Below are positions 1 to 16,342 of a stretch of DNA of 64,000 nt, piece after piece; the stretch's first letter is position 1; each line of letters starts with the position of its first letter. Under the pieces are notes generated by a model. That model saw only the letters and a program-made list of their open reading frames with translations. It was not told where the DNA came from and made no database searches. The DNA is from Armatimonadota bacterium. Lineage in GTDB: Bacteria; Armatimonadota; UBA5829; DSUL01. A program made the position numbers and the translations under genes. The stretch spans positions 72,057 to 136,056 of the forward strand of contig JBDHZC010000005.1 in NCBI GenBank assembly GCA_039811685.1. The letters are read 5' to 3'.

Positions 1-111
1 GATGCCTTGAGTGGGTTCTTTACGCCGACGGGTCAGTCCGGCTACTACCTCTACAAGAAGCAGTCGCCCAGCGACGTGCGGCTGGAAGGAAGAGAAGTTC
101 CGTACCCGTAG
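1..111 (+). CDS. Small peptide, 5'-truncated at window edge (…DALSGFFTPTGQSGYYLYKKQSPSDVRLEGREVPYP*); paralog of the peptide at 4820..4939
   Basis: Reading frame from position 1 to TAG at 109-111. It is 85-90% identical at nt and aa level to the 39-aa ORF at 4820..4939, which lies just downstream of an E element. The flanks are also duplicated. Confidence 0.35.
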   Translation, partial: DALSGFFTPTGQSGYYLYKKQSPSDVRLEGREVPYP

Positions 112-135
112 CGCCTATCGGCGAAAGAGGATGAA

Positions 136-1128
136 ATGTTTCGACAGTTGATCTGGTTTGTCACAGCAGCGCTCCCTTTGCTCGCACTTGTGCTCGCCGC
201 GGCCGCGTGCGGTGCAAGCGATATTCCGGTCGCTGTGCCCGCCCCCGGAGAGCCGCCTGTTCTGTTCGCTGCCGAGTCAGCAGGTGTGCTCTACACGGCA
301 ACTCTGGAGGCGGACAAGCGCGTTGCGGTCATCGCCGCCCTGCCGCTTGATCGAGTTGCGGAAAAACGGACTTACACAGTGCCGGTACCCGCTCTCGAAT
401 ACGAAAGTTTCCAGCGGCTCCGCTGGAGACTGGGCAGCGGATACGCGTGGCTGCTGCCAACGGTGCTGACGAATGGTGGCTTACGCCGCTACCCGATGTA
501 TCGCATTCCGCGCAGCGAACTCGACAAACTCCTCCACGGCAGTAACGAAGCCAGCGGAAGCGGCTTGAAAGACATGTGGTTTCCGCCGGGCTTTGCGCCA
601 CTCACACGCGCGGACGATGAATCCGGGGTGAAAGGGCAGCCGATCTACGGAGACTTCTACCCTATCTCTACATCAGCTATCCGGCAGTTCATTTTGCAGG
701 GCAGCGTACTGAGCGTCTGGGACTACATCGGAAACCCAGACGCCAAGCGGCCTGGGGGAAGTGACAGAGACCTCACTCCCGTGGCTGACCGAGAGCGGTA
801 CTTCAACTGGGTCCGCGTGGTGAAGCTGAAGGCGCCTTTTACGGAGTCCTTCCACGCGTTTCCTCAGAAGGGCGGGTTCCTGCTGGTTACGGACTCCGGC
901 GCGCTCTACTCCATCACGGGCATCAGCACCGGTACTCCAGCGATACGCAGGGTGGATCTGGGCGACGAGCAGATCAGGGTTATCGTGCAGACGGAGGGTG
1001 GATCGGCCATTGCGGCGACGCAGACGAAGCGCCTCGATCTGTCCTCGGCGCCGAAGCTGTCGCCGCTTTCGCATCCGCACAGCTCACCGACGGCTGCGGC
1101 CCTTGAGCTGGCCAAAGCGCTGAAGTAG
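136..1128 (+). CDS. Secreted protein/putative lipoprotein, P-family paralog (330 aa)
   Basis: ATG with upstream GAGGA. N-terminal hydrophobic signal with LAAAAC lipobox-like motif. Near-identical copy at 4964..5956. C-terminus …LELAKALK is shared with 3400..4482 and 7300..8325. Confidence 0.6.
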   Translation: MFRQLIWFVTAALPLLALVLAAAACGASDIPVAVPAPGEPPVLFAAESAGVLYTATLEADKRVAVIAALPLDRVAEKRTYTVPVPALEYESFQRLRWRLGSGYAWLLPTVLTNGGLRRYPMYRIPRSELDKLLHGSNEASGSGLKDMWFPPGFAPLTRADDESGVKGQPIYGDFYPISTSAIRQFILQGSVLSVWDYIGNPDAKRPGGSDRDLTPVADRERYFNWVRVVKLKAPFTESFHAFPQKGGFLLVTDSGALYSITGISTGTPAIRRVDLGDEQIRVIVQTEGGSAIAATQTKRLDLSSAPKLSPLSHPHSSPTAAALELAKALK

Positions 1129-1181
1129 TAGCGGGGTCGGCCGCGCTCAGTGAAGGAAGTCAGCCATCGCGGAGTCAAAGA

Positions 1182-1358
1182 ATGGAGAAACAAGTAGCTC
1201 AGGCGCAGCAAACCGTTCTGACTCTTGAAGCTGCGACAGCTACCTGCGCCGATTGGAAGCAGTGGTGGGCCGAGAACCAGAGCCAGTTTCAGTCCGGCAC
1301 CAGGAGCAAAGCTGAAGCTGCGGCCTTCGAACCAGCCGAACCCGCAACGGAGCAGTAG
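1182..1358 (+). CDS. W-module small protein (58 aa, MEKQVAQAQQTVLTLEAATATCADWKQWWAENQSQF…)
   Basis: ATG 1182 preceded by a conserved GAAGGAAG-containing leader. Homologous to the ORF at 8379..8555 and to the C-terminal ~50 aa of the HEAT protein at 6209..7165. Ends at the TAG that begins E copy 1. Confidence 0.45.
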   Translation: MEKQVAQAQQTVLTLEAATATCADWKQWWAENQSQFQSGTRSKAEAAAFEPAEPATEQ

Positions 1359-1461
1359 CGGAGGAACAGCGCTTCATCCGCGCAGGTGTCCTCACCTGCG
1401 CATAGAATTGGCGAATCTTTCACCCACTGGCTCCAGGTGGGGACATCTGGAGAGATGTAAA
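1356..1461 (+). repeat. E element copy 1 (~105 nt structured repeat: 5' arm agcggaggaacagcgcttcatcc, hairpin 1, spacer, hairpin 2, GGAGAG-ATG-TAA)
   Basis: One of six near-identical copies. Hairpin 1 is gcgcaggtg-tcct-cacctgcgc at 1380..1401. Hairpin 2 is ctccag-N10-ctggag at 1431..1452. ATG 1455-1457 is followed immediately by TAA. Confidence 0.8.
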
Positions 1462-1553
1462 TGGGGGCCCTTCTGCCAGACTGGGACGATGATGATCCCA
1501 ATCTGAACGGGGCGGAGAACGAGGACCTGGACCAGGTGACACGCGTCGAATGA
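1461..1553 (+). CDS. Acidic small peptide (30 aa, MGALLPDWDDDDPNLNGAENEDLDQVTRVE)
   Basis: Its ATG directly abuts the TAA of the E minimal uORF (ATGTAAATG). Its stop TGA 1551-1553 overlaps ATG 1550-1552 (ATGA). Coding status is uncertain. Confidence 0.3.
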   Translation: MGALLPDWDDDDPNLNGAENEDLDQVTRVE

Positions 1554-1561
1554 GGAGACCA

Positions 1562-3034
1562 ATGGTTTACAATGGAGTTATGGTCGTCGCCCGGCAGAAA
1601 GGCCCTGCCGGCCACTATGCAGCTGTCCTCGCGATAGCCGCATTCGTGTCCGCAGTGTGTGCTGCACAAGCGGCGTGCGAACTGCCAACTCACGGTTGGG
1701 AGTTCACAGTCGCAGCGGAGCACACGCCGGCTGTAGCGATCAGTAGAGACGGCTCGCGCATCGCCGTTTCCGACTGGGCGGCCATCTATCTACTTGACCG
1801 GCAGGGCAAGGTGCTGTGGACCGCGAAGGCGCCACCGAAGAGTGGCTTCGGAGTGACCGCCATCTCTGACACCGGCCATCGTGTGCTGTGCTGGAAGATT
1901 CGGCGCCTCCCAAGTGTGGACAACGAGGATATCGACTACAACGCGGTGCTCTTCAACGGCGCCAACGGGCAGGTGCTGACCGAGATCGAGCTGGACGGGG
2001 GCCGAGTGCCGACGGCGCTGTCTGGCGATGGACGGTATATTCTGGCGGGCTATCCGCCGGACGGCCTGGGCCTGGAAATGGCAGCACAGCCTGATCCCGC
2101 CAACTACCTCATGCTCTTAGATGACACCGGCAAGACCGTCTGGCGCTCAGACAAGCTTGCCCAAAAGCCCGTTGTCGGAGCGGCTTACGGCTTTTTATCC
2201 CACACCGGTTCCTATGCGCTGCTCGGCGCAAAAGACCGCCTGAACCTTGTGACCATCGGCGGCTATCACCTTTTCGACATTGCACTGACGTCAGACCCTG
2301 CCGTTTCCGCCGACGCTGACTTGATCATGATGGGCGCCACACCCGTGTTGTCCACAGACGTTCAGAAGTATGAGACCGCATGGCCTGTTGTCGCGCCACA
2401 GGGTGAGCAAGAGCCGCAGACATGGGGCCATGAGTCCTTTGGCTTCAAGACGTACACTGCAGCCGCGGCGCTCGCCTTGGTCCGCGTCGGGGATGTGGCC
2501 GAGGAGTCGCCTCCCCCGAACCGGCGGCATCCCTTTGCGGAGCTGGTGTGGGCGCATGGCGAGATCTGGGCGGGAAACCGGGAACGAGTGCTGGATGCGC
2601 CGAAGCTTCCGCCCATTCCCGCCGGTAATCCTGGACGGCGCGGGGTTGCCTACGGATCGGCTGGGCTGCTGGCAATTGTCGACCACACGCTGTTGGCGGC
2701 AGAGCTTGGGCAGGAGCACGCGGTGAAGTTGCTACGCCTGCCAGGGCTGGGGATTGTGAAAAGGGTCGGCGTGTCCAGCAACGCTTCCCGCGCCTACACT
2801 CTCGTCGCCGTCCCCGCTGGGTCCGATCTAGTGGGACGCGGCCCCAGCACGGGTTCGGCGGCTTCCGCTCTTGTCTGCACCGTCTGGGACAGGTCTGCCA
2901 AACCTGTTGCAACAATGCCTCTTTCAGAGCAGGAGAGGCCCTTCGCGATAGCCTTCTCCCACGCAGGCGATCTCCTGATCCTAGCGTGGAAGGGTAAGGT
3001 GCAGGCGTTCGAGATCGGAGGCGTCGCCAGGTAA
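1562..3034 (+). CDS. Secreted beta-propeller-like (PQQ/WD40-like repeat) protein
   Basis: 494-aa ORF; ATG 1562 preceded by GAGGAG at good spacing (alternative ATG 1550). Hydrophobic N-terminus and repeated …DG..IAVSD/…LLD.QGKVLW-like strands. It occupies the same position as the P-family genes between E copies 1 and 2. Confidence 0.5.
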   Translation: MVYNGVMVVARQKGPAGHYAAVLAIAAFVSAVCAAQAACELPTHGWEFTVAAEHTPAVAISRDGSRIAVSDWAAIYLLDRQGKVLWTAKAPPKSGFGVTAISDTGHRVLCWKIRRLPSVDNEDIDYNAVLFNGANGQVLTEIELDGGRVPTALSGDGRYILAGYPPDGLGLEMAAQPDPANYLMLLDDTGKTVWRSDKLAQKPVVGAAYGFLSHTGSYALLGAKDRLNLVTIGGYHLFDIALTSDPAVSADADLIMMGATPVLSTDVQKYETAWPVVAPQGEQEPQTWGHESFGFKTYTAAAALALVRVGDVAEESPPPNRRHPFAELVWAHGEIWAGNRERVLDAPKLPPIPAGNPGRRGVAYGSAGLLAIVDHTLLAAELGQEHAVKLLRLPGLGIVKRVGVSSNASRAYTLVAVPAGSDLVGRGPSTGSAASALVCTVWDRSAKPVATMPLSEQERPFAIAFSHAGDLLILAWKGKVQAFEIGGVAR

Positions 3035-3237
3035 CCCGGGTCGAGAACCCAATGCAGTTGACTTACTACGCCGACTGGAACTCAGAGACCGTAGCGATGG
3101 CCGGACTGCTTGCCGGAGGGGACGGCCAGTGCGGCTCCGCCTCAGGCGCAGCACGACGGCCTGGAGGGCCCGGCCTAGCAGCAGATGGTCGCCTGTCTCA
3201 CGGATATGAAGACCGCGCTGGGGTGTCCCCAGGCTAT

Positions 3238-3328
3238 GCTTCATCCGCGCAGGTGTCCTCACCTGCGCATAGAATTGGCGAGTCCTTCGCCCACTGGCTC
3301 CAGATGGGGACACCTGGAGAGATGTAAA
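3238..3328 (+). repeat. E element copy 2 (5' arm degenerate)
   Basis: gcttcatccgcgcaggtgtcctcacctgcgcatagaattggcgagtccttcgcccactggctccagatggggacacctggagagatgtaaa, with ATG 3322-3324 and TAA 3325-3327. The upstream 200 nt look like a decayed W-module. Confidence 0.75.
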
Positions 3329-3399
3329 GCTCGACCTGATATCGAGTGACGTAGCCGGCAGGGAAGCCTCGTATCCATAGCGTTAGAAGGAGTCACTAG

Positions 3400-4482
3400 A
3401 TGAAGATCACCGCTGTTGCCAAAGCTCTTCTTGTCTGTTGGTTGGCGGTCGACGCCGTCAGCCCTGCCGTCGCCGAGAGCTATCTATTCAGTGAAGAGAC
3501 GAAGCACCCCCTGATCGTCCAGCGCCCGCTGACAGGCATACTGGTTGATGAGACTATGTACACTCTCTCGATCGCGCCAGAGTCGGGCTATGCGCCTGTA
3601 CTGACGGAGACGCCGATGACCGCGCTTGCCGCGCCTGTCAGCTACGCTCTCACCGCAGTAGCCGACGCCAGACGCCCGGCCTTTCCTGTTCACTGGTCGC
3701 TGCGTGGAGGTTTTGTTTGGACGTTGACTGAGTCCGATACGCCGCTGAGTGGCATAGTGCCGTTTTACTTCAGTCTTCAGCGGACTGCGCTGACTGGCCT
3801 GGAGCCGTGTGCCGCAGCCACCACGCATGTGGTCAAGCCCGGTACTGTTGCCGATGTGTGGCACGCTCATCTGGCTAAGTGGGAGCGTGTCGCTTTCACT
3901 GAGCCCGAGACGCTGAACGACGCGACGCGGGCCGCCCGGCCTCCCGAGGTACCCTATCCTCTTGCCGCTATCGTGGTGACGGGACCGGTGACCGTCCAGC
4001 TTTTCCAGTTGACCGCCCCACATATGATGGGATGGGAGTACCGTGGGCCGGAGAAGCCTCGGCGGTGGAAAGCCGCGTTTGGGCCGGGGATGGCGCCGAT
4101 CTCTCCCGAGAGTCAGCGGGGCGTGCCTCTCAAGGAGCGTACTCACTCCGGCGACTGGTGGCGCATAGGGATGTTCGACGTTCCCTTCAGCGAGGCCTAG
4201 GAAGTGGCCAAGGTCGAAGGTACCTACTACGCCGTGACACAGAGCGGAGAGGTTTTCTCTCTGGGCGACCTTACCGGGAAAGTAAAGAAGATCGACATAG
4301 GAGGCAGACGTGTGACGGCGATTCTGACGCTGGAGGAGAGCGGAAAGGTGTATCTTTGTTCGCATGAGGACTACGCGCCGCTGTCGGATTCGCCTGGATT
4401 CAAATCCATTCCTGGAGGACACCCAGACGTCACCAGATCGGCAACGCAGTGCCTGCTGGACCTGGCGAAGGCGTTGAACTAG
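3400..4482 (+). pseudogene. P-family paralog interrupted by a single in-frame TAG (3400..4200 plus 4204..4482 in the same frame)
   Basis: Signal peptide at N-terminus. The last ~90 aa (…GGRRVTAILTLEESGKVYLCSHEDYAPLSDSPGFKSIPGGHPDVTRSATQCLLDLAKALN) are near-identical to the C-terminus of 7300..8325. TAG at 4198-4200 is in frame and flanked by homologous sequence on both sides. Confidence 0.5.
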
Positions 4483-4538
4483 CGCAGGGACTGCCATCCG
4501 CACGCAGTGAAGGAAGGCAGCCATCGCGGAGTCAAAGA

Positions 4539-4716
4539 ATCGAGAAATGAGCGGCTCAGGCGCAGTAAAGCGATCTGAATCTGAAGGCCGCGGAAGCTGC
4601 CAGGTCCGATTGGGAGCAGTGGCGGGCAGAGGACCAGAGCCAGTTTCAGTCCGGCACCAAGATCAAAGCTGAGGCTGGCGCACCCTCGATGTCGCCCGGC
4701 CCCGCGGCTCAGCCGT
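4539..4716 (+). pseudogene. W-module small ORF, degenerate copy (start ATG to ATC, internal TAA)
   Basis: Aligns to 1182..1358 and 8379..8555. Start codon mutated (aatCgagaa), stop within 'cagtaaagc', and a diverged middle. The 3' end …WEQWRAEDQSQFQSGTKIKAEAGAPSMSPGPAAQP* is retained. Confidence 0.5.
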
Positions 4717-4818
4717 AGCGGAGGAACAGCGCTTCATCCGTGCAGATGAGCGCATCTGCGCATAGAATTGGCGAATCTTTCACCCACTGGCTCCAGGTGG
4801 GGACACTTGGAGAGATGT
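4716..4818 (+). repeat. E element copy 3
   Basis: Hairpin 1 gtgcagatg-agcg-catctgcgc is a compensatory variant. Hairpin 2 is ctccag…cttggag. ATG 4815-4817 is followed by TGA, which overlaps the ATG of the next ORF (ATGTGATG). Confidence 0.8.
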
Positions 4819-4819
4819 G

Positions 4820-4939
4820 ATGCAAGACGATGCGTTGAGCGGGTTCTTTAGGCCGGCGGGTCAGTCCGGCTACTACCTCTACAAGAAGCAGTCGCCCAGC
4901 GATGTGCGGCTGCAAGATACTGAAGTTCCGTACCCGTAG
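4820..4939 (+). CDS. Small peptide (39 aa, MQDDALSGFFRPAGQSGYYLYKKQSPSDVRLQDTEVPYP)
   Basis: ATG overlaps the stop of the E minimal uORF. Conserved in the duplicate at window start (1..111), with mostly conservative changes. Confidence 0.4.
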   Translation: MQDDALSGFFRPAGQSGYYLYKKQSPSDVRLQDTEVPYP

Positions 4940-4963
4940 CGCCTATCGGCGAAAGAGGATGAA

Positions 4964-5956
4964 ATGTTTCGACAGTTGATCTGGTTTGTCACAGCAGCGC
5001 TCCCTTTGCTCGCACTTGTGCTCGCCGCGGCCGCGTGCGGTGCAAGCGATATTCCGGTCGCTGTGCCCGCCCCCGGAGAGCCGCCTGTTCTGTTCGCTGC
5101 CGAGTCAGCAGGTGTGCTCTACACGGCAACTCTGGAGGCGGACAAGCGCGTTGCGGTCATCGCCGCCCTGCCGCTTGATCGAGTTGCGGAAAAACGGACT
5201 TACACAGTGCCGGTACCCGCTCTCGAATACGAAAGTTTCCAGCGGCTCCGCTGGAGACTGGGCAGCGGATACGCGTGGCTGCTGCCAACGGTGCTGACGA
5301 ATGGTGGCTTACGCCGCTACCCGATGTATCGCATTCCGCGCAGCGAACTCGACAAACTCCTCCACGGCAGTAACGAAGCCAGCGGAAGCGGCTTGAAAGA
5401 CATGTGGTTTCCGCCGGGCTTTGCGCCACTCACACGCGCGGACGATGAATCCGGGGTGAAAGGGCAGCCGATCTACGGAGACTTCTACCCTATCTCTACA
5501 TCAGCTATCCGGCAGTTCATTTTGCAGGGCAGCGTACTGAGCGTCTGGGACTACCGCGGAAACCCAGACGCCAAGCGGCCTGCGGAAAGTGACAGAGACC
5601 TCACTCCCGTGGCTGACCGAGAGCATTACTTCGACTGGGTCCGCGTGGTGAAGCTGGAGGCGCCTTTCACGGAGTCCTTCCACGCGTTTCCTCAGAAGGG
5701 CGGGTTCCTGCTGGTTACGGACTCCGGCGCGCTCTACTCCGTCGCGGGCATCAGCACCGGCACTCCAGCGATACGCAGGGTGGATCTGGGCGACGAGCAG
5801 ATCAGAGTTATCGTGCAGACGGAGGGTGGATCGGCCATTGCGGCGACGCAGACGAAGCGCCTCGAGCTGTCCTCGGCGCCGAAGCTGTCGCCGCTTTCGC
5901 ATCCGCACAGCTCACCGACGGCTGCGGCCCTCGATCTGGCCAAAGCGCTGAAGTAG
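4964..5956 (+). CDS. Secreted protein/putative lipoprotein, P-family paralog (330 aa); recent duplicate of 136..1128
   Basis: About 97% aa identity to 136..1128. The upstream 140 nt are also duplicated. Followed directly by TAGTAG and E copy 4; the W-module ORF is absent here. Confidence 0.6.
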   Translation: MFRQLIWFVTAALPLLALVLAAAACGASDIPVAVPAPGEPPVLFAAESAGVLYTATLEADKRVAVIAALPLDRVAEKRTYTVPVPALEYESFQRLRWRLGSGYAWLLPTVLTNGGLRRYPMYRIPRSELDKLLHGSNEASGSGLKDMWFPPGFAPLTRADDESGVKGQPIYGDFYPISTSAIRQFILQGSVLSVWDYRGNPDAKRPAESDRDLTPVADREHYFDWVRVVKLEAPFTESFHAFPQKGGFLLVTDSGALYSVAGISTGTPAIRRVDLGDEQIRVIVQTEGGSAIAATQTKRLELSSAPKLSPLSHPHSSPTAAALDLAKALK

Positions 5957-6062
5957 TAGCGGGGGAACAGCGCTTCATCCGCGCAGATGAGCTCATCTGC
6001 GCAAAGCATTGGCGAGTCCTTCACCCACTGGCTCCAGGTGGGGACACCTGGAGAGATGTAAA
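5957..6062 (+). repeat. E element copy 4
   Basis: Hairpin 1 is gcgcagatg-agct-catctgcgc. ATG 6056-6058 and TAA 6059-6061. Confidence 0.8.
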
Positions 6063-6071
6063 GCGACGTTC

Positions 6072-6212
6072 GTGGCGGCAATCAACCAGGAGAGGATCGC
6101 GGGTGATAAGGATTACGAGGAGCAGGCCTACGGCGCGGAGGCCGTGTGCGAAATGGACCTGCTGGAGGAGACGTGCGCGTACGTCACGCCGCCATGTGAG
6201 GCGTGTCCATGA
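6072..6212 (+). CDS. Acidic 4-Cys small peptide A (…DKDYEEQAYGAEAVCEMDLLEETCAYVTPPCEACP); start codon uncertain (GTG 6072?)
   Basis: Open frame from the E element to TGA 6210-6212, which overlaps ATG 6209 of the HEAT gene (ATGA). Homologous to peptide B at 8660..8782 with pattern C-x8-C-x6/7-C-x2-C. Confidence 0.4.
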   Translation: MAAINQERIAGDKDYEEQAYGAEAVCEMDLLEETCAYVTPPCEACP

Positions 6213-7165
6213 CCATGGTATGCAGTCCTAGAACGGAGGTCGTTTTGAAACTCTTTATTGTGCTACTGCTTGCTGCTGCTCTTTGTGTTACGGCAATATC
6301 CGAGGGTGCGTCGGCCGAGCGCACGTGTGCCGCCACCAGGTATTACCGCTCCACGGTTTCTGAGTTGGTCGGGCTGCTTTCGAGTGGGCTGTCTATCGAC
6401 CGGTTCGACGCGGCTCTCGAACTCGGGCGGCGAGGCGATGTGTCAGTGATCCCTGCAATGAAGGCTGCGCTTGGCGATCCGGAGCGTTTCGTGCGGATGC
6501 GGATAGCTGCTGCGCTGCTGGATCTCGGCGATCGAAGCGGCGTGGAGGTACTTCACGAAGTTGTTACGTCGGGTGAGCCCTACTGGAGTCTGGCAGCGGC
6601 GGAGGTGCTTGCCCATCACGGTGACACCTTTGGCCGTGATCTCATCAGGAAGGCTCACTCTTCGAGCAGTTGGGTCGCTCGCTCCTCAGCCTTAAGGGCC
6701 TCGGCCGACCTTCCGGAGGGGCCGCCCTACGACGCCGTGGCTGCCGGACTGGAGGACTCGCAGCAGATTGTCCGCTTGACCGCCCTGAGGGCTGCTCAAA
6801 TGTGCCATGACCCCCGGGTGAAGGATCTGGTCCGCAAGGCGTTGTCTTCTTCCGATACGCTTCTGAGGGCGCGCGCGGCCATCATAATTGCGGAGGAGGG
6901 GCAGCCCGCAGACATTCCGGCTCTGATAGCGCTGTTGACAGCTCCGGATGGGGTTACCCGTTCTGCCGTTCTCAGAGCACTGCAGTCGCTGACGGGGCGT
7001 GCTTCTCCGTCGAAAACCGTTCTGACTCTTAAGGCTGCGACAGCTATCCGCGCTGAGTGGGAGCAGTGGTGGGCCGAGAACCAGAGCCAGTTCCCGCCTG
7101 GTACCAAGATCAAAGCTGAGGCTGGCGCACCCTCGGTGTCGCCCGGACCCGCGGCTCAGCCGTAG
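6209..7165 (+). CDS. Secreted HEAT-repeat (PBS-lyase/E-Z type) protein with C-terminal W-module
   Basis: Signal peptide (LKLFIVLLLAAALCV). Tandem repeats of the …LG(D)xxxxxxLxxxLxDxxxxVRxxAAxAL… type. The last ~50 aa (KTVLTLKAATAIRAEWEQWWAENQSQFPPGTKIKAEAGAPSVSPGPAAQP) match the free-standing W-module ORFs. GTG 6203 is an alternative start. Confidence 0.6.
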   Translation: MTMVCSPRTEVVLKLFIVLLLAAALCVTAISEGASAERTCAATRYYRSTVSELVGLLSSGLSIDRFDAALELGRRGDVSVIPAMKAALGDPERFVRMRIAAALLDLGDRSGVEVLHEVVTSGEPYWSLAAAEVLAHHGDTFGRDLIRKAHSSSSWVARSSALRASADLPEGPPYDAVAAGLEDSQQIVRLTALRAAQMCHDPRVKDLVRKALSSSDTLLRARAAIIIAEEGQPADIPALIALLTAPDGVTRSAVLRALQSLTGRASPSKTVLTLKAATAIRAEWEQWWAENQSQFPPGTKIKAEAGAPSVSPGPAAQP

Positions 7166-7267
7166 CGGAGGAACAGCGCTTCATCCGTGCAGAGGAGCGC
7201 ATCTGCGCATGGACTTGGCGAATCTTTCGCCCACTGGCTCCAGATGGGGACACCTGGAGAGATGTAA
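7163..7267 (+). repeat. E element copy 5
   Basis: Starts at the TAG of the HEAT gene. Hairpin 1 gtgcagagg-agcg-catctgcgc has one mismatch. ATG 7262-7264 and TAA 7265-7267. Confidence 0.8.
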
Positions 7268-7299
7268 GTCGCGAATACTGAGCGCAACTGAGATGCACA

Positions 7300-8325
7300 A
7301 TGAGAAGCAAAGGACACAGTAAAATGAGGGTACGGAAACGGCCTCTTCTTCTTCTCTTCGGAGTCCTACTTGTCACCACTCCACCAGCTGTCGGGCAGCC
7401 GTCTCCTGGTGTTCGCCTACGTCCTGGTCAAAGCCAACTGGTGCAGACTCCGCTGACGGCCTCTTCACGTGCGGGCGTTCTTTACACAGTGATCATTGAC
7501 AAAGGGCGTGCCTTGCTGCGGCAGACGCCTCTTGATACTTCATCGCCCGTTCGCTTCGCAAGTCTGGAGTCCTCCAGCCGTTTGACCGGTATCGGCCCGA
7601 TGTTTCCAGCGCATTGGGGACTTGCAGACGGCTTCCTTTGGTCGCTGGTTCTTGAAGAAGGAGACGCATACTGGGCCAGCCCACATCTAAGCCGCTTCGC
7701 GCTGGAGGACATGCGTCTCGTGGACCCGGACAACGCCCTTCCGCCTCGAGGCGCGCACCGCACAAGGCGCACAGAAGTCCCCCCGTATCCTCTCCTGGAT
7801 GCCATCGCGGAAGGGTCAAACCGTGACTTACTGGTCTTCCCCGCGCTTCAGCCCCTGTCGCGCAAATCCGTCCGCCTGTTCGTGCTGCAGCCGCCCGTGC
7901 TGACGGTATGGGTGAACGAAGACCCCGCGCTTTTCGCACCACGAACGTCCGGACGCAGCGTCGAAGGACGCGTGAAGGAAAAGGGCAGGATTGAGAACTG
8001 GTTGAAGGTTGCGTCTATCAGTGTTCCTTTCGCCGAGCCTTTCGAAGTTGTTGGGTGCGGTTCCGTCTGCTACTTCATCACAGGAAGCGGGGACCTCTAT
8101 GCAGATAAAGATCTGAAGGCAAGTCCGCAGAAGATCGACACAGGAGGCAGGCGCGTGACGGCGATTCTGACGCTGGAGGAGAGCGGAAAGGTGTATCTTT
8201 GTTCGCACGAGGACTACGCGCCGCTGTCGGATTCGCCTGGATTCAAATCCATTCCTGGAGGTCACCCAGGCGTCACCAGGTCGGCAACGCAGTGCCTGCT
8301 GGACCTGGCCAAAGCGCTGAAGTAG
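7300..8325 (+). CDS. Secreted protein, P-family paralog (341 aa)
   Basis: Basic N-terminus followed by a hydrophobic signal (RPLLLLFGVLLVTTPPAVG). Middle region recognisably homologous to 3400..4200. C-terminal 90 aa near-identical to 4204..4482, ending LLDLAKALK. Alternative start at 7324. Confidence 0.6.
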   Translation: MRSKGHSKMRVRKRPLLLLFGVLLVTTPPAVGQPSPGVRLRPGQSQLVQTPLTASSRAGVLYTVIIDKGRALLRQTPLDTSSPVRFASLESSSRLTGIGPMFPAHWGLADGFLWSLVLEEGDAYWASPHLSRFALEDMRLVDPDNALPPRGAHRTRRTEVPPYPLLDAIAEGSNRDLLVFPALQPLSRKSVRLFVLQPPVLTVWVNEDPALFAPRTSGRSVEGRVKEKGRIENWLKVASISVPFAEPFEVVGCGSVCYFITGSGDLYADKDLKASPQKIDTGGRRVTAILTLEESGKVYLCSHEDYAPLSDSPGFKSIPGGHPGVTRSATQCLLDLAKALK

Positions 8326-8378
8326 TAGCGGGGTCGGCCGCGCTCAGTGAAGGAAGTCAGCCATCGCGGAGTCAAAGC

Positions 8379-8555
8379 ATGGAGAAACGAGCGGCTCAGG
8401 CGCAGCAAACCGTTCTGACTCTTAAAGCTGCGACAGCTATCCGCTCCGATTGGGAGCAGTGGTGGGCCGAGAACCAGAGCCAGTTCCCGCCTGGCGCCAA
8501 GATCAAAGCTGAGGCCGCACCCCCGGCGTCGCCCGGACCCGCGGCTCAGCCGTAG
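8379..8555 (+). CDS. W-module small protein (58 aa, MEKRAAQAQQTVLTLKAATAIRSDWEQWWAENQSQFPPGAKIKAEAAPPASPGPAAQP)
   Basis: Same conserved leader (cagtgaaggaagtcagccatcgcggagtcaaag) and ATG context as 1182..1358. Ends at the TAG that starts E copy 6. Confidence 0.45.
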   Translation: MEKRAAQAQQTVLTLKAATAIRSDWEQWWAENQSQFPPGAKIKAEAAPPASPGPAAQP

Positions 8556-8659
8556 CGGTGGAACAGCGCTTCACCCGTGCAGAGGAGCGCATCTGCGCAT
8601 TGAATTGGCGCATCTTTCGCCCACTGGCTCCAGGTGGGGACATCTGGAGAGATGTAAAC
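8553..8659 (+). repeat. E element copy 6
   Basis: Hairpin 1 is gtgcagagg-agcg-catctgcgc. ATG 8652-8654 and TAA 8655-8657. Carries an internal TGA in the frame that is open in the other copies. Confidence 0.8.
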
Positions 8660-8782
8660 AAACAACGTGATGAAGAAGAAGCGTACTCCGAACAGGAGAT
8701 GTGCGAGAGGCTTACGTTGGACGACTGGTGTACATTTGGTATCCACGGGCCCTGCACGGCGTGCGATGATCTCAATGACTAG
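8660..8782 (+). CDS. Acidic 4-Cys small peptide B (…RDEEEAYSEQEMCERLTLDDWCTFGIHGPCTACDDLND); start codon unresolved
   Basis: Homolog of peptide A with the same Cys spacing and the conserved EE.AY…C.E motif. Ends at TAG 8780-8782, 20 nt upstream of the second HEAT gene. The only in-frame ATG is at 8699; the homology extends upstream of it. Confidence 0.35.
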   Translation, partial: KQRDEEEAYSEQEMCERLTLDDWCTFGIHGPCTACDDLND

Positions 8783-8801
8783 CAAGATGATGGAGGAAAG
8801 A

Positions 8802-9716
8802 ATGACGAAGATGGTAGCGCTGGTTCTAATCTGCGGGTGGTTCGGCTGGGGTGGTGTCTGTGCTGCGGGGCCGGCTACCCCTGTCACCGCCACAAATGGC
8901 TCAGCGACTCGTTCACCGGATTGTGACGAGGCGAGTGTCCCTGAATTGATTGCCATCCTTCGTGAGCGTGGAACCTTTGCTGTCCGTGCAGCACAGCTCC
9001 TTGCGGATCGCCACGCGACGTCTGCAATTCCGGATCTCGCGCTGTTGTTGACGGATCCGAAAATCTCTCTGCGGATAAATGCGGCGCGTGCAATGGCGCT
9101 CCTGGGAGACCGGAGCGGGTTACCAGTGCTGCGGGCGGCGCTGACAGAGGGTGACGATTTCCACGCCTCTATCGCGGCCGCTTTTCTGGCGCAGCTTGGC
9201 GACGACAGTGGGCGCGCGGTTTTGGAGAGGGAACTCAGTAGTCAAAACTGGATCGACCGGAGGCAGGCCCTGTACGCATTGGCGCTTCTTCCGGATGGTC
9301 TGTCTGATGTGGCTGTTGCAGCGGCTCTAGAGGACGAAAGGCCGGAGGTACAAAGAAGCGCGTTTCGTGTGGCCTGGAAAAATGCGTCTGATAGGGTGCG
9401 GGAGGTGTTGATTAAAAAGACACAGTCCCCGGATCCGCTTACCCGCTGGCGGGCGACTGAGGCCCTGTTTATGAGTAACCCGCACCGAAACGCAGAGATT
9501 GCTATTGGCATGATTACGGATCCGGACCGCCTCGTACAGGGACAAACATCCATGATGCTGGCGCATTTCTCCCGTGTGGCTGTGCCTCGGGTGAGCGGGT
9601 GGATGAGGAGTGCCGAGCGGGCAAGAGATCTCAAGCAGGCGTATCTGGAGTGGCTGGCGGTTAACAGGGACGTGGCGTTCCCGCCAACCGAGCCGGCGCC
9701 GCCTGCACCGCAATAG
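8802..9716 (+). CDS. Secreted HEAT-repeat (PBS-lyase type) protein with a diverged native W-like C-terminus
   Basis: GGAGG then ATG 8802. Signal peptide (MTKMVALVLICGWFGWGGVCAAG). HEAT repeats (…AARAMALLGDRSGLPVLRAAL…). C-terminal QAYLEWLAVNRDVAFPP resembles AIRAEWEQWWAENQSQFPP. An in-frame upstream ATG at 8667 would add a non-signal extension. Confidence 0.6.
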   Translation: MTKMVALVLICGWFGWGGVCAAGPATPVTATNGSATRSPDCDEASVPELIAILRERGTFAVRAAQLLADRHATSAIPDLALLLTDPKISLRINAARAMALLGDRSGLPVLRAALTEGDDFHASIAAAFLAQLGDDSGRAVLERELSSQNWIDRRQALYALALLPDGLSDVAVAAALEDERPEVQRSAFRVAWKNASDRVREVLIKKTQSPDPLTRWRATEALFMSNPHRNAEIAIGMITDPDRLVQGQTSMMLAHFSRVAVPRVSGWMRSAERARDLKQAYLEWLAVNRDVAFPPTEPAPPAPQ

Positions 9717-9765
9717 CAGCGGCTGCGAGCGGGCAAACGCTCATTCAGTCGGAGATACGCACGCA

Positions 9766-9797
9766 AAAGTAAGGGGGCAGCCGGTTGGCCGCCCCCA
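9766..9797. terminator. Putative bidirectional intrinsic terminator hairpin between convergent genes
   Basis: gggggcagccggttggccgccccc, a GC-rich imperfect stem-loop between the + gene ending at 9716 and the − gene ending at 9829. No strong U-tract. Confidence 0.3.
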
Positions 9798-9828
9798 ATT
9801 GCTTGAATCACGCTGTGGATGAGACGCT

Positions 9829-10719
9829 CTACACCCGCTTGCGGCGAACCACCCCTGCCAGTGATACCAGGCCGGCTCCCAGCGCGAGCAGGGAACCCGG
9901 CTCAGGCACCAGCGTCAGCGAGAAGTCATCAAAGTAGCCAGTCTGGCTTCCGAACTTTGAGTTCACTTCTATAACATTGTAGCCGTAGTTGAGCACGGAA
10001 TTATGAGTCAGCGTCGGATTCACCATGTCGTCAATGTAGAACCAGACGTCGTTTGTGCCGTCGCCGAGCGCAGGCCCAACCACGATGCGCGCCTGATGCC
10101 AACCAACGCTTCTGCTGGTGCTGGTGTTGAACCATCCGTTAGGGCCGCCGTAGCCGTCGCTGGACCCGACAACGCGAGCCTGATACTTGCTGGTATCCCC
10201 GGTGCTTTGCGCTCCCAGTGAAAGCCGCTGGATCTTGCTGGCGCCGGCGTTCAGGCTGCCCGATCCAGGATAGTCAGTGCCGGAAGGCGCCGTGTTGTAA
10301 TAGCCAAGAGCGACGTAGTCCTTGAAGTTGCCGTCACCCGCGCCACCGACGTCGTAGAACCACCAGTCGAGCGTCAGATTCCCGGTAAAGACGTTGCCGC
10401 CGTTGAAGCGATAGGCGATATTCAACCAGTTCTGGTCAATGTCTGCCCCGCCTACGAAGGCTCCGCGAAGCATGTGGTCACCACTGTGGGGCGTGACGCC
10501 GCTGTCGGTCGAAACTACCTGTCCGTTTGGCGGGTTGGGGCCGAACCAGGGGTTGCCGGACCCGTTTGGCGCCGAGTTCGCGCCACCGGGGGCATTCTTG
10601 TCGAGCGCGCCGATATTGGCGCCCTCAAATCCGTCTGTAAAGACGGGAGCCGCCTGCGCCGTGAAAGCTGTGGCCACAACCAAAAGTCCCACCGCGCAGA
10701 GGAGCATTCCTCTTTTCAT
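9829..10719 (-). CDS. PEP-CTERM sorting-domain secreted protein
   Basis: Start MKRGMLLCAVGLLVVATAFTAQA (signal peptide). C-terminal VPEPGSLLALGAGLVSLAGVVRRKRV is a PEP-CTERM motif plus TM helix plus basic tail. Confidence 0.65.
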   Translation of the reverse strand: MKRGMLLCAVGLLVVATAFTAQAAPVFTDGFEGANIGALDKNAPGGANSAPNGSGNPWFGPNPPNGQVVSTDSGVTPHSGDHMLRGAFVGGADIDQNWLNIAYRFNGGNVFTGNLTLDWWFYDVGGAGDGNFKDYVALGYYNTAPSGTDYPGSGSLNAGASKIQRLSLGAQSTGDTSKYQARVVGSSDGYGGPNGWFNTSTSRSVGWHQARIVVGPALGDGTNDVWFYIDDMVNPTLTHNSVLNYGYNVIEVNSKFGSQTGYFDDFSLTLVPEPGSLLALGAGLVSLAGVVRRKRV

Positions 10720-11129
10720 ACTTTCTCCTTCTGTCTGCCTGCAGTCAGCCGATCTTACGCCGGCTTGCACTCTAGCAGTACACAAACGTACTTAATTTAG
10801 AATATCACTGCGTACTTATAGAGTCAACTGGTAATTTGGTGTCAAAATCTCATCCTTTTTCCAGGTGAAGCGCAGAAAGCGCAGGATGCCTTTACTGTTG
10901 CGCGACCGGACCGGTGTCTGACGTATTTGCATTCGGATTGCGCTAAGGCCACCGCCCGTGGTATACTCCTGCGTCTGTGAAAGTCGTCACAGGCTTTGCA
11001 CTTACAGAGACGATGGCCACTTCTTGAGGGCAGAGCCAGCGCAACAGAGTTCCACAGACACATAGTTGAGGGTGGAATCAGAACCACGGCCGACTGTGGC
11101 AACTCCGCCTGCTGCTCGTAAATGCTCGC

Positions 11130-11762
11130 ATGAACCAACAGACCCAAAAGGTGCCGGTGCCGACTCTGGAGCGCATGGCAAGATATCTTGCCTGCCTGCT
11201 TGATCTCGACGCAAAAAGCGTTGAGACGATCTCTTCCGCGGACATGGAGCGCTATACGGACGTCAACGCCGCTCAATTCCGCAAAGATCTCTCGTACTTT
11301 GGCGAGTTTGGACGTCCCGGCATCGGCTACAGCGTGCCGGAGCTCACCCGCCGGATCAGCAAGATTCTAAAAGTGGACAGAGAGCAGCCGGTGCTACTGG
11401 TAGGAGCGGGCAATCTGGGGTCGGCGCTTGCGGGCTACCCGAGTCTCTCCCGGGAACACTTCAGAATCGCTGCGGTTTTCGACAACAATCCCGCCAAGAT
11501 CGGTCACAAACTCTGGGACGTAGATATTTACGACATTTCGAAGATTGCGGAGGTCAATGCGCGGAGCATAGACGCCAGACTCGCCATTATCGCAGTGCCA
11601 TCCGCAGCAGCTCAACAGGTGGCGGACGCAGTTGTGAAGTGCGGGGTCACCGCTATTCTCAATTTCGCTCCAGTGACACTGCGAGTTCCGCGTGAAGTGA
11701 CAGTGCGCAATGTAGATTTTGTGCAGGAGCTTGCCGTACTGTCGTTTCACCTGGCTCCCTGA
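11130..11762 (+). CDS. rex: Redox-sensing transcriptional repressor Rex
   Basis: Full-length similarity to Rex family: N-terminal wHTH (…RDLSYFGEFGRPGIGYSV…) and Rossmann NADH domain (LVGAGNLGSAL…ILNFAP). Confidence 0.85.
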   Translation: MNQQTQKVPVPTLERMARYLACLLDLDAKSVETISSADMERYTDVNAAQFRKDLSYFGEFGRPGIGYSVPELTRRISKILKVDREQPVLLVGAGNLGSALAGYPSLSREHFRIAAVFDNNPAKIGHKLWDVDIYDISKIAEVNARSIDARLAIIAVPSAAAQQVADAVVKCGVTAILNFAPVTLRVPREVTVRNVDFVQELAVLSFHLAP

Positions 11763-13277
11763 ATGGCGCGCGTCAGGGATATACGCACTGTCTCGGTGCG
11801 TACAAAAATCCTCGTGCCGGTTCTCTTCATTGTTGTCGCTGTCTTTGCCGCTATTCTCTACGGCGCCGCTCTGGTACTGGAAGCGCAGCGGCACGAATAC
11901 TCCCGAAGAATTGGTAGAAGAGTCTCCAGCGCTGTTGCTGGCGGGTTGCACTCCGCTCTGATGACTGGACGCAAAACCGAAGCACAGGAAGCCATCCGGG
12001 TTATGCTCTCCGAAGCGGACCTCCCTCCCAGTCAAATCGCTATTCGCAAGCTGGACGGCGCTTACTGGATTCGCGGCGGCGACAATACAATCCCGCCGCA
12101 TTCGTTTGCGCTGAAACCGTCTCTAAAGGAGAACTCCAGCCGAGAGTTCAGCGTTGGCGCTGCCCGTTTCATCAATACCACATCAGTTCTCCCGAATGAG
12201 CCTGAGTGTCAAAGCTGTCACAGCCCCGCCACCCGAGTGCTCGGCTATCTCGAAGTGGACCTTCCCGTGGTCTGGGTGCGCCAGCGCCACCAGGCGACTC
12301 TCACGGCTATCGCCGTTATTGCGGGGCTGACGCTTCTGCTGCTGGCTGTTGCAATCGTTTTGTCCGTCCAGATAGCGGTTGTTACGCCGATCAAGGGTCT
12401 GGCAAGCGCTATGACGGTGGTTAAGGGCGGGCATCGCGATGTTCAGGTGGAAGCCGGACCGGAAGACGAGATCGGCATGCTGAGCAGACGGTTCAACGAG
12501 ATGGTGGATGAAGTGGCTGAGGCGGAACACTCTCTTGTCGAAAAAGAGCACCAGCTTGCGCGGGCGGAGAAGCTGGCTGGGATTGGGCTGATGGCTGCGG
12601 GAATCGCCCACGAGATAAATAACCCGCTGACCGCTGTGTCGATGGCCGCGGAGAGTATCAATCTCCCCAACGCCACACAAGAGCAGCGGCAAAGGCTGAG
12701 CGCCTACATTCTGGAGGGTACGCGGCGAATCCAGGATATTGTGGCTGAGCTTCTGACGCTGGATCAGAAGCGAGCTTTGAATGTGACTGAGCAGGACGTT
12801 GCGGAGATCGTCCACGCCGCGCTGGCTGGCAGACAGATTCCCGGTAACATCACGGTGCACGCCAGTTTGGCTCCGGATCTTCCAAAAGTTCACGTGGACT
12901 GGGAACGAATTGTGAGGGCAATCGGCAACCTTGTGAAAAACGCTCTCCAGGCGATGCCTGACGGGGGAGAATTGACTTTGTCTGCAGAAGCTGGAAAAGG
13001 CGAGGTACTGATTGACATCAAGGATACAGGTGGAGGTATAGCCCCCGAACATCTCCACCGCATTTTTGATCCTTTTTTCAGCACGCGGGAGGTCGGAGAA
13101 GGCTTTGGACTGGGACTGGCTTTTGCGCACGCTGTGGTGAAGCAGCACGGGGGGGACATAACAGTCAGCAGCGAACCTGGCCGTGGAACGGCATTTACAA
13201 TCTCGTTGCCCGTTGAGCCGGGAGCGAACCCAGAGGAACCTGGTGATTCCAGGGACGTGTCAGAGATGGAGGAATAG
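11763..13277 (+). CDS. Sensor histidine kinase with periplasmic CxxCH heme-binding motif
   Basis: TM segment, periplasmic domain containing CQSCH, second TM, H-box (IAHEINNPLTAV), and HATPase_c G-boxes (DTGGGI…GLGLAF). Confidence 0.7.
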   Translation: MARVRDIRTVSVRTKILVPVLFIVVAVFAAILYGAALVLEAQRHEYSRRIGRRVSSAVAGGLHSALMTGRKTEAQEAIRVMLSEADLPPSQIAIRKLDGAYWIRGGDNTIPPHSFALKPSLKENSSREFSVGAARFINTTSVLPNEPECQSCHSPATRVLGYLEVDLPVVWVRQRHQATLTAIAVIAGLTLLLLAVAIVLSVQIAVVTPIKGLASAMTVVKGGHRDVQVEAGPEDEIGMLSRRFNEMVDEVAEAEHSLVEKEHQLARAEKLAGIGLMAAGIAHEINNPLTAVSMAAESINLPNATQEQRQRLSAYILEGTRRIQDIVAELLTLDQKRALNVTEQDVAEIVHAALAGRQIPGNITVHASLAPDLPKVHVDWERIVRAIGNLVKNALQAMPDGGELTLSAEAGKGEVLIDIKDTGGGIAPEHLHRIFDPFFSTREVGEGFGLGLAFAHAVVKQHGGDITVSSEPGRGTAFTISLPVEPGANPEEPGDSRDVSEMEE

Positions 13278-13284
13278 CAGGGAT

Positions 13285-13905
13285 ATGCCTAAGCGAGTCT
13301 GGACAGCAGAGCGTGTTGTCGAGGAAATACAGCAACTCGAGAAATCGGGCGTCGATCTGAGGCACGGTTCTGTCCAGGACGAGCACAAGAGGCTGGTAAG
13401 CGCGGCGATCCGTTACTTTGGAAGCTGGAGAGCGGCGGTTGAAGCCTCAGGGCTTGACTATGAAAAGCTGCGGCAGTCCTCTGAAGAGCAGCGCCTTCAG
13501 AAGATTGGAAAATGGTCGGAGGAGAGGATTCTTGCGGAAATCAAGGATCTGAAGGACAAAGGAGACGATCTGCGCGCTGTGATGGTCAAGAACAAGTACC
13601 CCGCGCTGTTCTCAGCGGCGGTCAGCCCCAGGTACTTTGGCAACTGGCGAAAAGCTCTGACAGCGGCGGGAGTGGACTACGATACAGTGCTGTCCCGGTC
13701 CCCGCGCGGGCGTCCAAAAAGGACCGACGTCTGGCACGCAGGGCTGATTCTGCAGAAAATCCGTGAGATGCATGCGAAGGGGCAGAGCCTGGAGTCCGAG
13801 GCGATATCTTCGCACTATCCCCGCCTTCTCCGGCTTGCGACAATGCGCTTTGGAAGCTGGCACTCTGCGGTGGATGAGGCCCTCTCAAAAGACAACTCCG
13901 CATAG
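13285..13905 (+). CDS. Hypothetical protein with three tandem ~45-aa repeats (R[YM]FGSW..A…G[LV]DY)
   Basis: ATG 13285 just after the kinase stop. Repeats RYFGSWRAAVEASGLDYEKL / RYFGNWRKALTAAGVDYDTV / MRFGSWHSAVDEAL resemble homing-endonuclease-associated repeats; this resemblance is from memory. Confidence 0.4.
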   Translation: MPKRVWTAERVVEEIQQLEKSGVDLRHGSVQDEHKRLVSAAIRYFGSWRAAVEASGLDYEKLRQSSEEQRLQKIGKWSEERILAEIKDLKDKGDDLRAVMVKNKYPALFSAAVSPRYFGNWRKALTAAGVDYDTVLSRSPRGRPKRTDVWHAGLILQKIREMHAKGQSLESEAISSHYPRLLRLATMRFGSWHSAVDEALSKDNSA

Positions 13906-13994
13906 TTGCGCTCTTTTCTTACGGGCTTCGATATGGCTGACGGCGCACACAGCGCGGTTGACGTTGCGCGTGCAAAGCTTTATTATACGGTCAC

Positions 13995-14774: not shown

Positions 14775-15461
14775 GTGTCAATTCTGGCAATCGGTGCGGC
14801 AGATTCATCTGGCTTGTCCGGGCTTTGGATGTATGCTCACAGCGCAGAGTGTGACTGCCGGATATTCCCTGTGACCGCGTGCGTGATCGCCAGGAGCAGA
14901 GATGGCCGCGTCAAAGCAGTATCCGCAACCCCGCCAACGATTATCGCGCGCCAGATTGATGCCGCTACTGAGATAGAGCATCCACAGGCCTGCATCGTCG
15001 GGATGCTGGCGCGGCATCAGGCGGTGCACAGGGTGGCGGAACGGATTCAGAGGCGAGAGATCTGCAACATTGTCCTGGCGCCGGTGTTAGGGCGCGAAGA
15101 CGGGCGCGATCTGATGACAGCGCAGGGGATCAAGCAGACCAGAAGGCAGCTTGTCCCGCTGGCTGATATCATCGTTGGTGATGCGCAGACACTTCAAAGC
15201 CTTGCCAACAGTGAACGGGGCGTTGCTGCCGCGGCACAGGCACTGAGAGATAACGGTGCGAAAAGCGTCATTGCGCTCTGGCAGCAGGCGGACAAGTTTG
15301 TCTGCCGCGTGTTTGCCGGGCAAACGGCGCAGTTCTCTCTGGGTCCGGGAAGCCAGATGGACCAGACGCTCATCGACAGGCTCGCTGTTGCTTCGGCGCT
15401 GAGTCTTACGGAGGGCAAGAGCCTCACGGAGCGCCTGAGTCAGTGGAGCGCCGGGTGTTAG
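14775..15461 (+). CDS. ThiD-like (hydroxymethylpyrimidine/pyridoxal kinase family) protein, short
   Basis: N-terminal ILAIGAADSSGLSGL resembles the ThiD glycine-rich motif. Shorter than canonical ThiD. Confidence 0.4.
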   Translation: MSILAIGAADSSGLSGLWMYAHSAECDCRIFPVTACVIARSRDGRVKAVSATPPTIIARQIDAATEIEHPQACIVGMLARHQAVHRVAERIQRREICNIVLAPVLGREDGRDLMTAQGIKQTRRQLVPLADIIVGDAQTLQSLANSERGVAAAAQALRDNGAKSVIALWQQADKFVCRVFAGQTAQFSLGPGSQMDQTLIDRLAVASALSLTEGKSLTERLSQWSAGC

Positions 15462-16296: not shown

Positions 16297-16342
16297 TGGC
16301 GTATGCAATCAAAGCGATGCACGCAGAAAGGCTTTCTGGTCT

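Follow-up and report, generated by a model that had tools for sequence, protein, structure and literature searches.

A sequence of about 105 nucleotides (nt), here called element E, recurs in one orientation between the genes of a 9-kb array in an Armatimonadota bacterium, and the question that this locus raises is what such an element is. We analyzed the 64,000-nt stretch of contig JBDHZC010000005.1 (assembly GCA_039811685.1, contig positions 72,057–136,056) that begins within the array; this whole stretch is called the window, and all coordinates are window positions 1–64,000. The copies in the window were named E1 to E6, and a copy upstream of base 1 was named E0. E is a genuine, previously uncatalogued and lineage-specific repeat of ~105 nt, and it is non-coding. 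Our reading of its role is tentative: E may be a leader RNA between cistrons, which hides the ribosome-binding site of the cistron that follows, and which was propagated by duplication and homogenized by gene conversion.

E is a discrete repeat confined to one gene array of the window

A repeat search of the window revealed one family of six direct copies with 80–90% identity to the reference (spans 1351–1461, 3218–3328, 4711–4821, 5952–6062, 7158–7268 and 8548–8658), with a start-to-start spacing of 1206–1867 nt. Two independent sub-patterns of E each gave six exact matches, all on the + strand, where shuffled sequences were expected to give none, and neither had a match in the rest of the 64 kb. 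When the six copies were used to build a covariance model (R1), its sole matches in the window were the same six, with 102–132 bits. By both the sub-pattern scans and R1, the other 54 kb of the window contained no copy. An earlier note on this DNA had listed six + strand copies, and these were confirmed by all three approaches at the coordinates in Table 1. It had also predicted a further copy just upstream of the window, which was found on a Logan contig (L003) that extends 55 nt past window base 1 and bears the 3′ 46 nt of E0; the 3′ end of E0 is ATGTGATG, as in E3. The genes between the copies are four paralogues of one family (W, predicted beta-propeller proteins), one gene for a product of 494 amino acids (aa), two HEAT_2 repeat genes, and short open reading frames (ORFs) directly following E.

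Columns 16–105 of the alignment showed 84–94% identity in all 15 pairs of the six window copies. In the 100 nt past the ATGTAA or ATGTGA end, identity fell to background (44–54%) in every pair, and the 3′ edge of E did not shift by a single base among the seven copies. On the upstream side, the 100 nt preceding E were likewise at background in all pairs containing E2 or E4. Among pairs with homologous upstream DNA, E was never less conserved than that DNA (e.g. 90 vs 75%, 87 vs 74% and 91 vs 82%). E is a discrete conserved island. The proposal that each copy starts at or just after the TAG of an upstream ORF held for five of the six window copies; E2 lacks the first ~15 nt, sits within a 91-codon ORF (3052–3327) and has no preceding stop codon.

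No Rfam 15 family matched at gathering thresholds in the whole window, and no family matched E at permissive thresholds either. The only sub-threshold match overlapping a copy was to the snoRNA family SNORA43 (3246–3339, 19.5 bits against a gathering threshold of 80). As the earlier note had stated, the array is not a CRISPR (clustered regularly interspaced short palindromic repeats) locus, in which repeats of 23–55 nt alternate with spacers of 20–70 nt, whereas E measures ~105 nt and its copies are 1.2–1.9 kb apart with genes between them. Beyond the window, one exact pattern gave no matches in GTDB species representatives and JGI metagenomes; the second gave four chance matches there, with at most 8.4 bits at the pattern sites under R1. 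Blastn detected no match in plasmids or phages, and R1, run on the window and on the related loci described below, recovered only the six copies in the window.

Predicted fold and position of the Shine-Dalgarno sequence

Most full-length copies shared a common minimum-free-energy fold on the + strand; E5 and the 5′-truncated E2 differed. In the predicted fold, the 5′ arm is weakly paired with the linker (P1 and P2), and is followed by hairpin H1 (alignment columns 25–46) with a variable loop, the invariant linker ACCCACUGG, and hairpin H2 (columns 76–97) with the invariant loop GGGA. The two hairpins of the earlier note were both present, but its layout of the second, ctccag-N10-ctggag, is better replaced by a 9-bp stem with a 4-nt loop in each hairpin. 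Predicted stem stabilities ranged from -9.6 to -17 kcal/mol for H1 and from -9.8 to -16.5 kcal/mol for H2. Folding z-scores of the + strand against shuffled sequences were -2.8 to -4.0 in five copies, and the + strand fold was more stable than that of the - strand in four of five copies. In the alignment, 96.2% of the cells pair in the common structure. A compensatory change was observed in one base pair only (31/40, G-C to A-U). Where only one side of a stem had changed, G-C had in most cases become G-U on the + strand (pairs 26/45, 81/92, 84/89 and 8/63), and on the - strand these changes would amount to A-C mismatches. A thermodynamically credible, strand-biased structure is therefore a plausible description of E.

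The 3′ arm of H2 is CUGGAG, which together with the following AG gives GGAGAG, a sequence like a Shine-Dalgarno (SD) sequence, with CUCCAG as the anti-SD. The SD core GGAG lies within this arm in all seven copies, and in E0, E1 and E3 the start codon of the next small ORF is found 5–6 nt past GGAGAG. The 5′ arm contains GGAGG, a potential competitor for the anti-SD. In addition, H1 and the reverse complement of H2 are alike (core CAGRTG-N4-CAYCTG), and their complementarity to each other in E1 and E2 is 88% over 16 nt, which would permit an alternative long-range fold. The GGAGG sequence and the cross-complementarity of H1 and H2 are possible elements of a switch.

E as a putative intercistronic leader

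Neither a sigma-70-like promoter nor a terminator was found between the cassettes, and none of sigma-70 type was found within E. The array looks like one long transcription unit on the + strand. Its transcript probably ends at a hairpin (9773–9796) between the last array gene and a convergent gene, the only strong intrinsic terminator in positions 1–10000. In the mRNA, E would extend from the stop codon of the upstream cistron to the ribosome-binding site of the next. Its 5′ two-thirds would form an irregular hairpin (P1-P2-H1), its 3′ end would form the 9-bp H2 with the GGGA loop, and because GGAG belongs to the 3′ arm of this hairpin, the start site of the next small ORF would stay masked for as long as H2 is closed. 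The stable stems may also shield the flanking mRNA segments from decay. Copies would arise by duplication of a unit consisting of a HEAT gene 3′ end and E, and gene conversion would keep them alike. We infer transcription through E, its folding in vivo and any regulatory effect from the sequence.

In known SD-sequestering leaders (ROSE, fourU and translational riboswitch platforms), the 3′ arm of a hairpin immediately upstream of the start codon carries the SD, with further stems on the 5′ side. The predicted fold of E is similar, with a start codon at the 5–6 nt distance in E0, E1 and E3 only. E differs from them in being reiterated inside an operon rather than placed at the operon 5′ end. 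Unlike that of RNA thermometers, its H2 is strong and perfect or near-perfect, without thermometer-type mismatches, a G bulge or a U-rich anti-SD, and, unlike in riboswitches, no ligand-binding fold was recognized in E by the Rfam search. The repetitive extragenic palindrome (REP) between malE and malF of Escherichia coli is an intercistronic palindrome that stabilizes the upstream mRNA. E is similar to REP and bacterial interspersed mosaic elements (BIMEs) in that it would place stable stem-loops between cistrons of one putative transcript, directly after a stop codon. REPs, however, are 20–40 nt long, dispersed and present in both orientations, whereas E is a composite 105-nt element in one array and one orientation.

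Several observations weigh against a leader of this kind. E5 folded barely better than its shuffles (z = -1.15), A-C mismatches occur in H2 of E2 and E5, and G-A mismatches occur in H1 of E5 and E6. None of the covariation measures rose above shuffled alignments, which reached the observed values in 163–500 of 500 cases; covariation was not significant because the copies are too alike to test the structure. The term "structured element" of the earlier note is accordingly plausible, with + strand folding z-scores in five of the six window copies in its favor but no significant covariation. Masking of the SD directly fits only three of the seven copies, because in E2, E4, E5 and E6 the SD or start of the next gene is elsewhere: GGAGAG and the nearest plausible start codon are 15–18 nt apart in E4 and E6, and the gene after E2 or E5 is served by an SD of its own 35–70 nt downstream (~70 nt for E2, whose next gene starts at 3400). 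Furthermore, E is absent outside its lineage in the searched collections, so that there is no cross-species conservation, and gene conversion alone could explain the high identity of the copies.

A more far-reaching form of the leader appears unlikely to us. In this form E would be an undescribed class of cis-regulatory RNA standing before every cassette, through which one signal would act on a common SD-masking switch with alternative folds that free the SD, and the same sequence would also supply homology for cassette shuffling.

Duplication and gene conversion in the array

E1, E3, E5 and E6 form the end of a longer repeat of 250–530 nt with 83–93% identity. The ~250 nt upstream of these four copies are a repeated remnant of the HEAT gene 3′ end, in which a 58-aa sequence homologous to the C-terminus of the intact HEAT protein is encoded by the last 170 nt ahead of the TAG. 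Since HEAT 3′-end homology precedes E, the unit that spread was the HEAT gene 3′ end together with E. In E4, the HEAT-remnant module upstream is absent, and the junction of E4 with the W gene looks like a deletion between near-identical GTAGCGG(G/A)G sequences at the ends of W genes and the start of E. Two stretches of 1.1 kb, each with a small ORF and a 330-aa gene, are duplicates with 97% identity (1–1128 vs 4829–5956), and the array also contains mosaic blocks. In arrays of cdiA/rhs orphan modules, the units carry a short 3′ remnant of the "main" gene, which provides homology for recombination. The 58-aa module, homologous to the HEAT protein C-terminus, resembles such a remnant. The E array differs from those arrays in that toxin and immunity domains were not detected, the remnant has no in-frame fusion to the variable part, and E is non-coding.

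Site patterns within E were incompatible, with all four combinations present at columns 60/63 vs 67 and at columns 67 vs 91. L003, which comes from a second strain in another sample, was mosaic: it mostly followed the first copy, with a short tract (L003 positions 130–148) from the second copy, and its downstream module was closer to 8299–8480 than to 1102–1283. Together, the incompatible site patterns and the tracts in L003 indicate that gene conversion is active in the array. A contig of another assembly, JADLDK010000010.1 (GCA_020846715.1), was identical to window 1108–17165 except for seven mismatches (3033, 4377, 4645, 5010, 5170, 5179 and 6079); one end of this contig is within the array. 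All seven were in the array and none in E, and no mismatch occurred in the 11 kb after the array. The mismatch at 3033 changes the TAA stop of the 494-aa ORF to a sense codon, and the NCBI record annotates 499 aa there.

Because the array is a recombining paralogue family, a non-RNA explanation of the likeness of the E copies is available. E would then be a passive homology tract, a piece of the duplicated unit of HEAT 3′ end and downstream spacer, spread by unequal crossing-over and homogenized by conversion, with no RNA or protein-binding role; at most it would be a substrate for homologous recombination among cassettes. This is a serious rival that we consider somewhat unlikely. The position of four copies inside the longer repeat suits it, conversion predicts both the incompatible sites and the tracts in the second strain, and the confinement of the seven assembly differences to the array, the non-significant covariation and the lack of conservation in related lineages all agree with it. 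However, E was kept at junctions where both flanks are unrelated (E2 and E4), and its 3′ edge is identical in seven copies, whereas conversion tracts should end raggedly. Nor would a passive tract lead one to expect that E is conserved at least as well as the adjoining coding remnant, or that one-sided stem substitutions favor + strand pairing.

Less likely readings of E: recombination site, operator, mobile repeat or coding sequence

We regard it as quite doubtful that E serves site-specific recombination in a cassette system of the integron attC or rAID-1 type, with a recombinase that is encoded beyond the upstream array end and acts at the sharp 3′ edge of E. The uniform gene orientation, the spacing of 1.2–1.9 kb, the single repeat per junction and the identical 3′ boundary are in favor of such a system, and both assemblies break off before they reach the head of the array, upstream of window base 1. 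Sedentary chromosomal integrons (e.g. the Vibrio cholerae repeats) share with the E array a similar ~100-nt repeat at every junction of a same-orientation array, internal dyad symmetry and cassettes of 1–2 kb. The absence of attC cores reported in the earlier note was nevertheless reproduced by a regular-expression scan of each copy with 30 nt of flank on both strands: RYYYAAC and GTTRRRY are lacking in E, and RYYYAAC-N40-130-GTTRRRY does not occur in 1–10000. The termini of E are not complementary and form no long imperfect hairpin; only the two local 9-bp hairpins and the H1-H2 cross-complementarity are present. No E or E remnant follows the last array gene (8802–9716), and a last cassette with E in front and none behind fits a 5′ leader, not a 3′ cassette site. 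The G-U pattern in the stems also favors RNA over duplex DNA. A candidate for dif/Xer likeness was rejected: TGCGCATA resembles a XerC arm, but the adjoining bases vary between copies and a XerD arm is absent.

The rAID-1 arrays of Bacteroidales, which carry orphan immunity genes, are long same-strand arrays of exported-protein genes with repetitive intergenic sequences (Ross et al. 2019, bioRxiv 10.1101/471110). Their defining features are a recombinase of the XerD family, a skew in G+C and genes homologous to immunity genes. The E array has repetitive intergenic sequence between same-strand ORFs as well. It differs in that its G+C is not skewed (61% vs 59% in the rest of the window), no immunity family was matched, the scanned ORFs of the window contained no recombinase domain, and it belongs to another phylum. 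Moreover, the E cassettes are paralogues of two or three families (among them four W and two HEAT genes) that co-occur without E in other lineages, which argues for local duplication and not capture.

Word-based protein searches with three array proteins returned only the proteins themselves and remote HEAT-repeat proteins; an array HEAT-repeat protein was 100% identical to a protein of "MAG: Armatimonadetes bacterium" (MAG, metagenome-assembled genome). A full hidden Markov model search found 51 remote relatives of the W family, and a protein scan of GTDB genomes found no relatives. At the loci of the closest of the 51, W-family beta-propeller genes adjoin secreted HEAT_2 genes in distant lineages, namely in another Armatimonadota MAG (L006), an ENA contig (L005) and metagenome organisms (L007–L009), which suggests that W and HEAT_2 are a conserved functional pair across lineages. 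No E was found in L005–L009, though W and HEAT_2 genes are present. Since W/HEAT pairs recur in other lineages without E, the gene content of the array is apparently an old functional partnership amplified locally and not a set of captured foreign genes. L007 contains an additional 1080-aa protein with internal repeats. L005 shares the protein cluster P0010 with an Armatimonadota MAG and has its own ~90-nt direct repeat (4632–4722 and 5524–5614), in which a hairpin TCCCGCGGCC...GGCCGCGGGA is followed by ...GGAGATGGCC and which flanks a truncated W-family gene; no homology between this repeat and E was detectable.

It is very doubtful that E is a DNA operator, in which the two 9-4-9 palindromes would bind a dimeric regulator of all cassettes and act by roadblock or through internal promoters. 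H1 and H2 do share their CAGRTG-N4-CAYCTG core, with centers about five helical turns apart, and both the linker and the H2 loop are invariant. On the other hand, there is no sigma-70-like promoter in or near E, no regulator gene is linked to the array, and symmetric compensating and G-U-type changes are unexpected for protein recognition. Candidate promoters within E were rejected: a -10 sequence TAGAAT (columns 48–53, found by eye) is not conserved, a sigma-54-like GG-N10-GC spacing is present in only four of seven copies, and GGAAC resembling an extracytoplasmic function (ECF) promoter lacks a conserved -10.

A small mobile or dispersed repeat, such as a miniature inverted-repeat transposable element (MITE), REP or BIME-like sequence clustered here by chance, would match E in its ~105-nt size and internal hairpins. 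It is highly improbable given that E lacks terminal inverted repeats and that no base duplication is common to the DNA on either side of the six copies, both as the earlier note had held, and given that every copy lies in one orientation within 9 kb, while the other 54 kb and the searched collections contained none.

In a six-frame test, four frames of E had ~4 synonymous to 19 non-synonymous variant codons. Frame +2 had 11 synonymous to 12 non-synonymous (p ~0.015 for the excess before correction for six frames), and its antisense partner frame had 10 to 13. Coding in any of the six frames was rejected, as only frame +2 showed a synonymous excess and contained no coherent ORF. The scarcely credible proposal that E encodes a micro-protein or the N-terminal leader of downstream peptides in frame +2 (LANLSPTGSRWGHLERC...) draws on that excess, on columns 65–103, where the six window copies differ by four substitutions and none of these is non-synonymous in frame +2, and on E4, where the frame continues into a Cys-rich peptide. 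It founders on stop codons ahead of the conserved part in E3 and E4, a sole conserved start (TTG) without SD, a variable frame relation to the downstream peptides (+1, +2 and +3, with tails of 3 to 49 codons) and a non-synonymous change in E0.

From the TAG at the start of E, the frame stays open for 34 codons up to the TAA of E, and one other array gene is interrupted by an in-frame TAG (4198–4200). Read-through or recoding was also rejected: TAG is a normal stop, found at the end of 14 of 36 long ORFs outside the array, the stop of E4 is doubled (TAGTAG), a TGA interrupts that frame in E6, and the 4 synonymous to 19 non-synonymous changes in the extension frame reveal no purifying selection. 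No tRNA genes were found in the window.

Genes of the array and its surroundings

The features of the array are listed in Table 1. An AlphaFold model of a W protein (predicted local distance difference test score 83, predicted template modeling score 0.80) was a generic beta-propeller. Pfam, NCBIfam and PADLOC searches with array proteins gave generic HEAT matches only, with no immunity family. The W gene at 3400–4482 is split by a single in-frame TAG (4198–4200), where its paralogues have P or S (FSEA-TAG-EVAK vs FAEPFEVV). In-frame homology continues on both sides of this TAG, and the NCBI record has two genes there (266 aa and 92 aa). This TAG may have arisen by a recent nonsense mutation, or else it may be read through.

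The two intact 58-aa ORFs (1182–1358 and 8379–8555) each start at an ATG with a separate SD, reproduce the last ~55 residues of the HEAT protein 6203–7165 as stand-alone copies and share the motif DWEQWWAENQSQF; their only database relatives are proteins of the MAG itself. A third copy (~4540–4716) is decayed. A small acidic Cys-rich ORF precedes each HEAT-repeat gene (6072–6212 and ~8700–8782). These two ORFs share EE.AY....C....L....C......PC.AC and lie in different frames relative to E, and no NCBIfam family matched either one. About 12 of 16 array ORFs, read by eye, end in TAG, as compared with 14 of 36 long ORFs elsewhere in the window; this excess may reflect the shared ancestry of paralogous 3′ ends.

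Table 1. Copies of E, array genes and associated features in the window
Feature	Position	Strand	Details
E1, full	1356–1461	+	TAG of 58-aa ORF 1356–1358; H1 1380–1401; H2 1431–1452
E1, 3′ end		+	GGAGAG 1449–1454; ATGTAA 1455–1460; ATG of next ORF at 1461
E2	3238–3328	+	5′ arm absent, unrelated sequence instead; H1 3247–3268; H2 3298–3319
E3, full, ends ATGTGA	4716–4820	+	H1 4740–4761; H2 4791–4812; GGAGAG 4809–4814
E3, downstream		+	ATG of 39/40-aa ORF at 4820, 5 nt past GGAGAG
E4, full	5957–6062	+	Abuts TAGTAG end of 330-aa gene; H1 5981–6002; H2 6032–6053
E5, full	7163–7267	+	From TAG of intact HEAT-repeat gene 6203/6245–7165; H1 7187–7208 (one G-A mismatch); H2 7238–7259
E6, full	8553–8659	+	From TAG of 58-aa ORF 8379–8555; H1 8577–8598; H2 8628–8649
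W1	136–1128	+	330 aa, signal-peptide/lipoprotein-like; predicted beta-propeller
W paralogues	4964–5956; 7300/7324–8325; 3400–4482	+	4964–5956 is a 97% nt duplicate of W1
494-aa gene	1550–3034	+	Weak sub-threshold PQQ_2/BamB-like Pfam match; ATG overlaps TGA of 30-aa ORF 1461–1553 (ATGA)
HEAT_2 repeat protein	6203–7165	+	Signal peptide; annotated start = window 6245; repeated 58-aa module derives from its 3′ end
Second HEAT_2 repeat protein	8802–9716	+	Last array gene
Small ORF, 39–40 aa	4820–4939	+	Directly after E3; duplicate follows E0, begins before base 1 and ends at 111
Other small ORFs after E	1461–1553; 6072–6212; ending 8782	+	30 aa; 46 aa, Cys-rich; Cys-rich homologue
Module upstream of E1	1129–1355	+	Conserved ~55-nt stretch and 58-aa ORF 1182–1358
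Sister modules	8326–8552; 4483–4715	+	Intact ORF 8379–8555; ORF decayed, two in-frame stops
Terminator hairpin	9773–9796	Called on -	10-bp G+C-rich stem

The convergent gene at the array end (9829–10785, - strand) encodes a PEP-CTERM-anchored protein and shares the hairpin at 9773–9796. The rest of the window is ordinary chromosome, with genes for glycosyltransferases, phosphoglucomutase, SerRS, PepA and acetyl-CoA synthetase. At least six glycosyltransferase genes (GT1/GT2/GT4), followed by genes for a LolA-like protein and a PfkB kinase, are found in 17092–26609, and this cluster is probably a polysaccharide biosynthesis locus.

Implications

E is confined to one uncultivated lineage, and its general importance is modest. 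If E were a recombination site, it would extend the biology of cassette arrays beyond integrons and the Bacteroidales rAID systems. If E is a working RNA leader, as we tentatively propose, it would be a regulatory module that is copied with each new paralogue and places a gene family under common translational control, in Armatimonadota, a phylum in which almost nothing is known about gene regulation.

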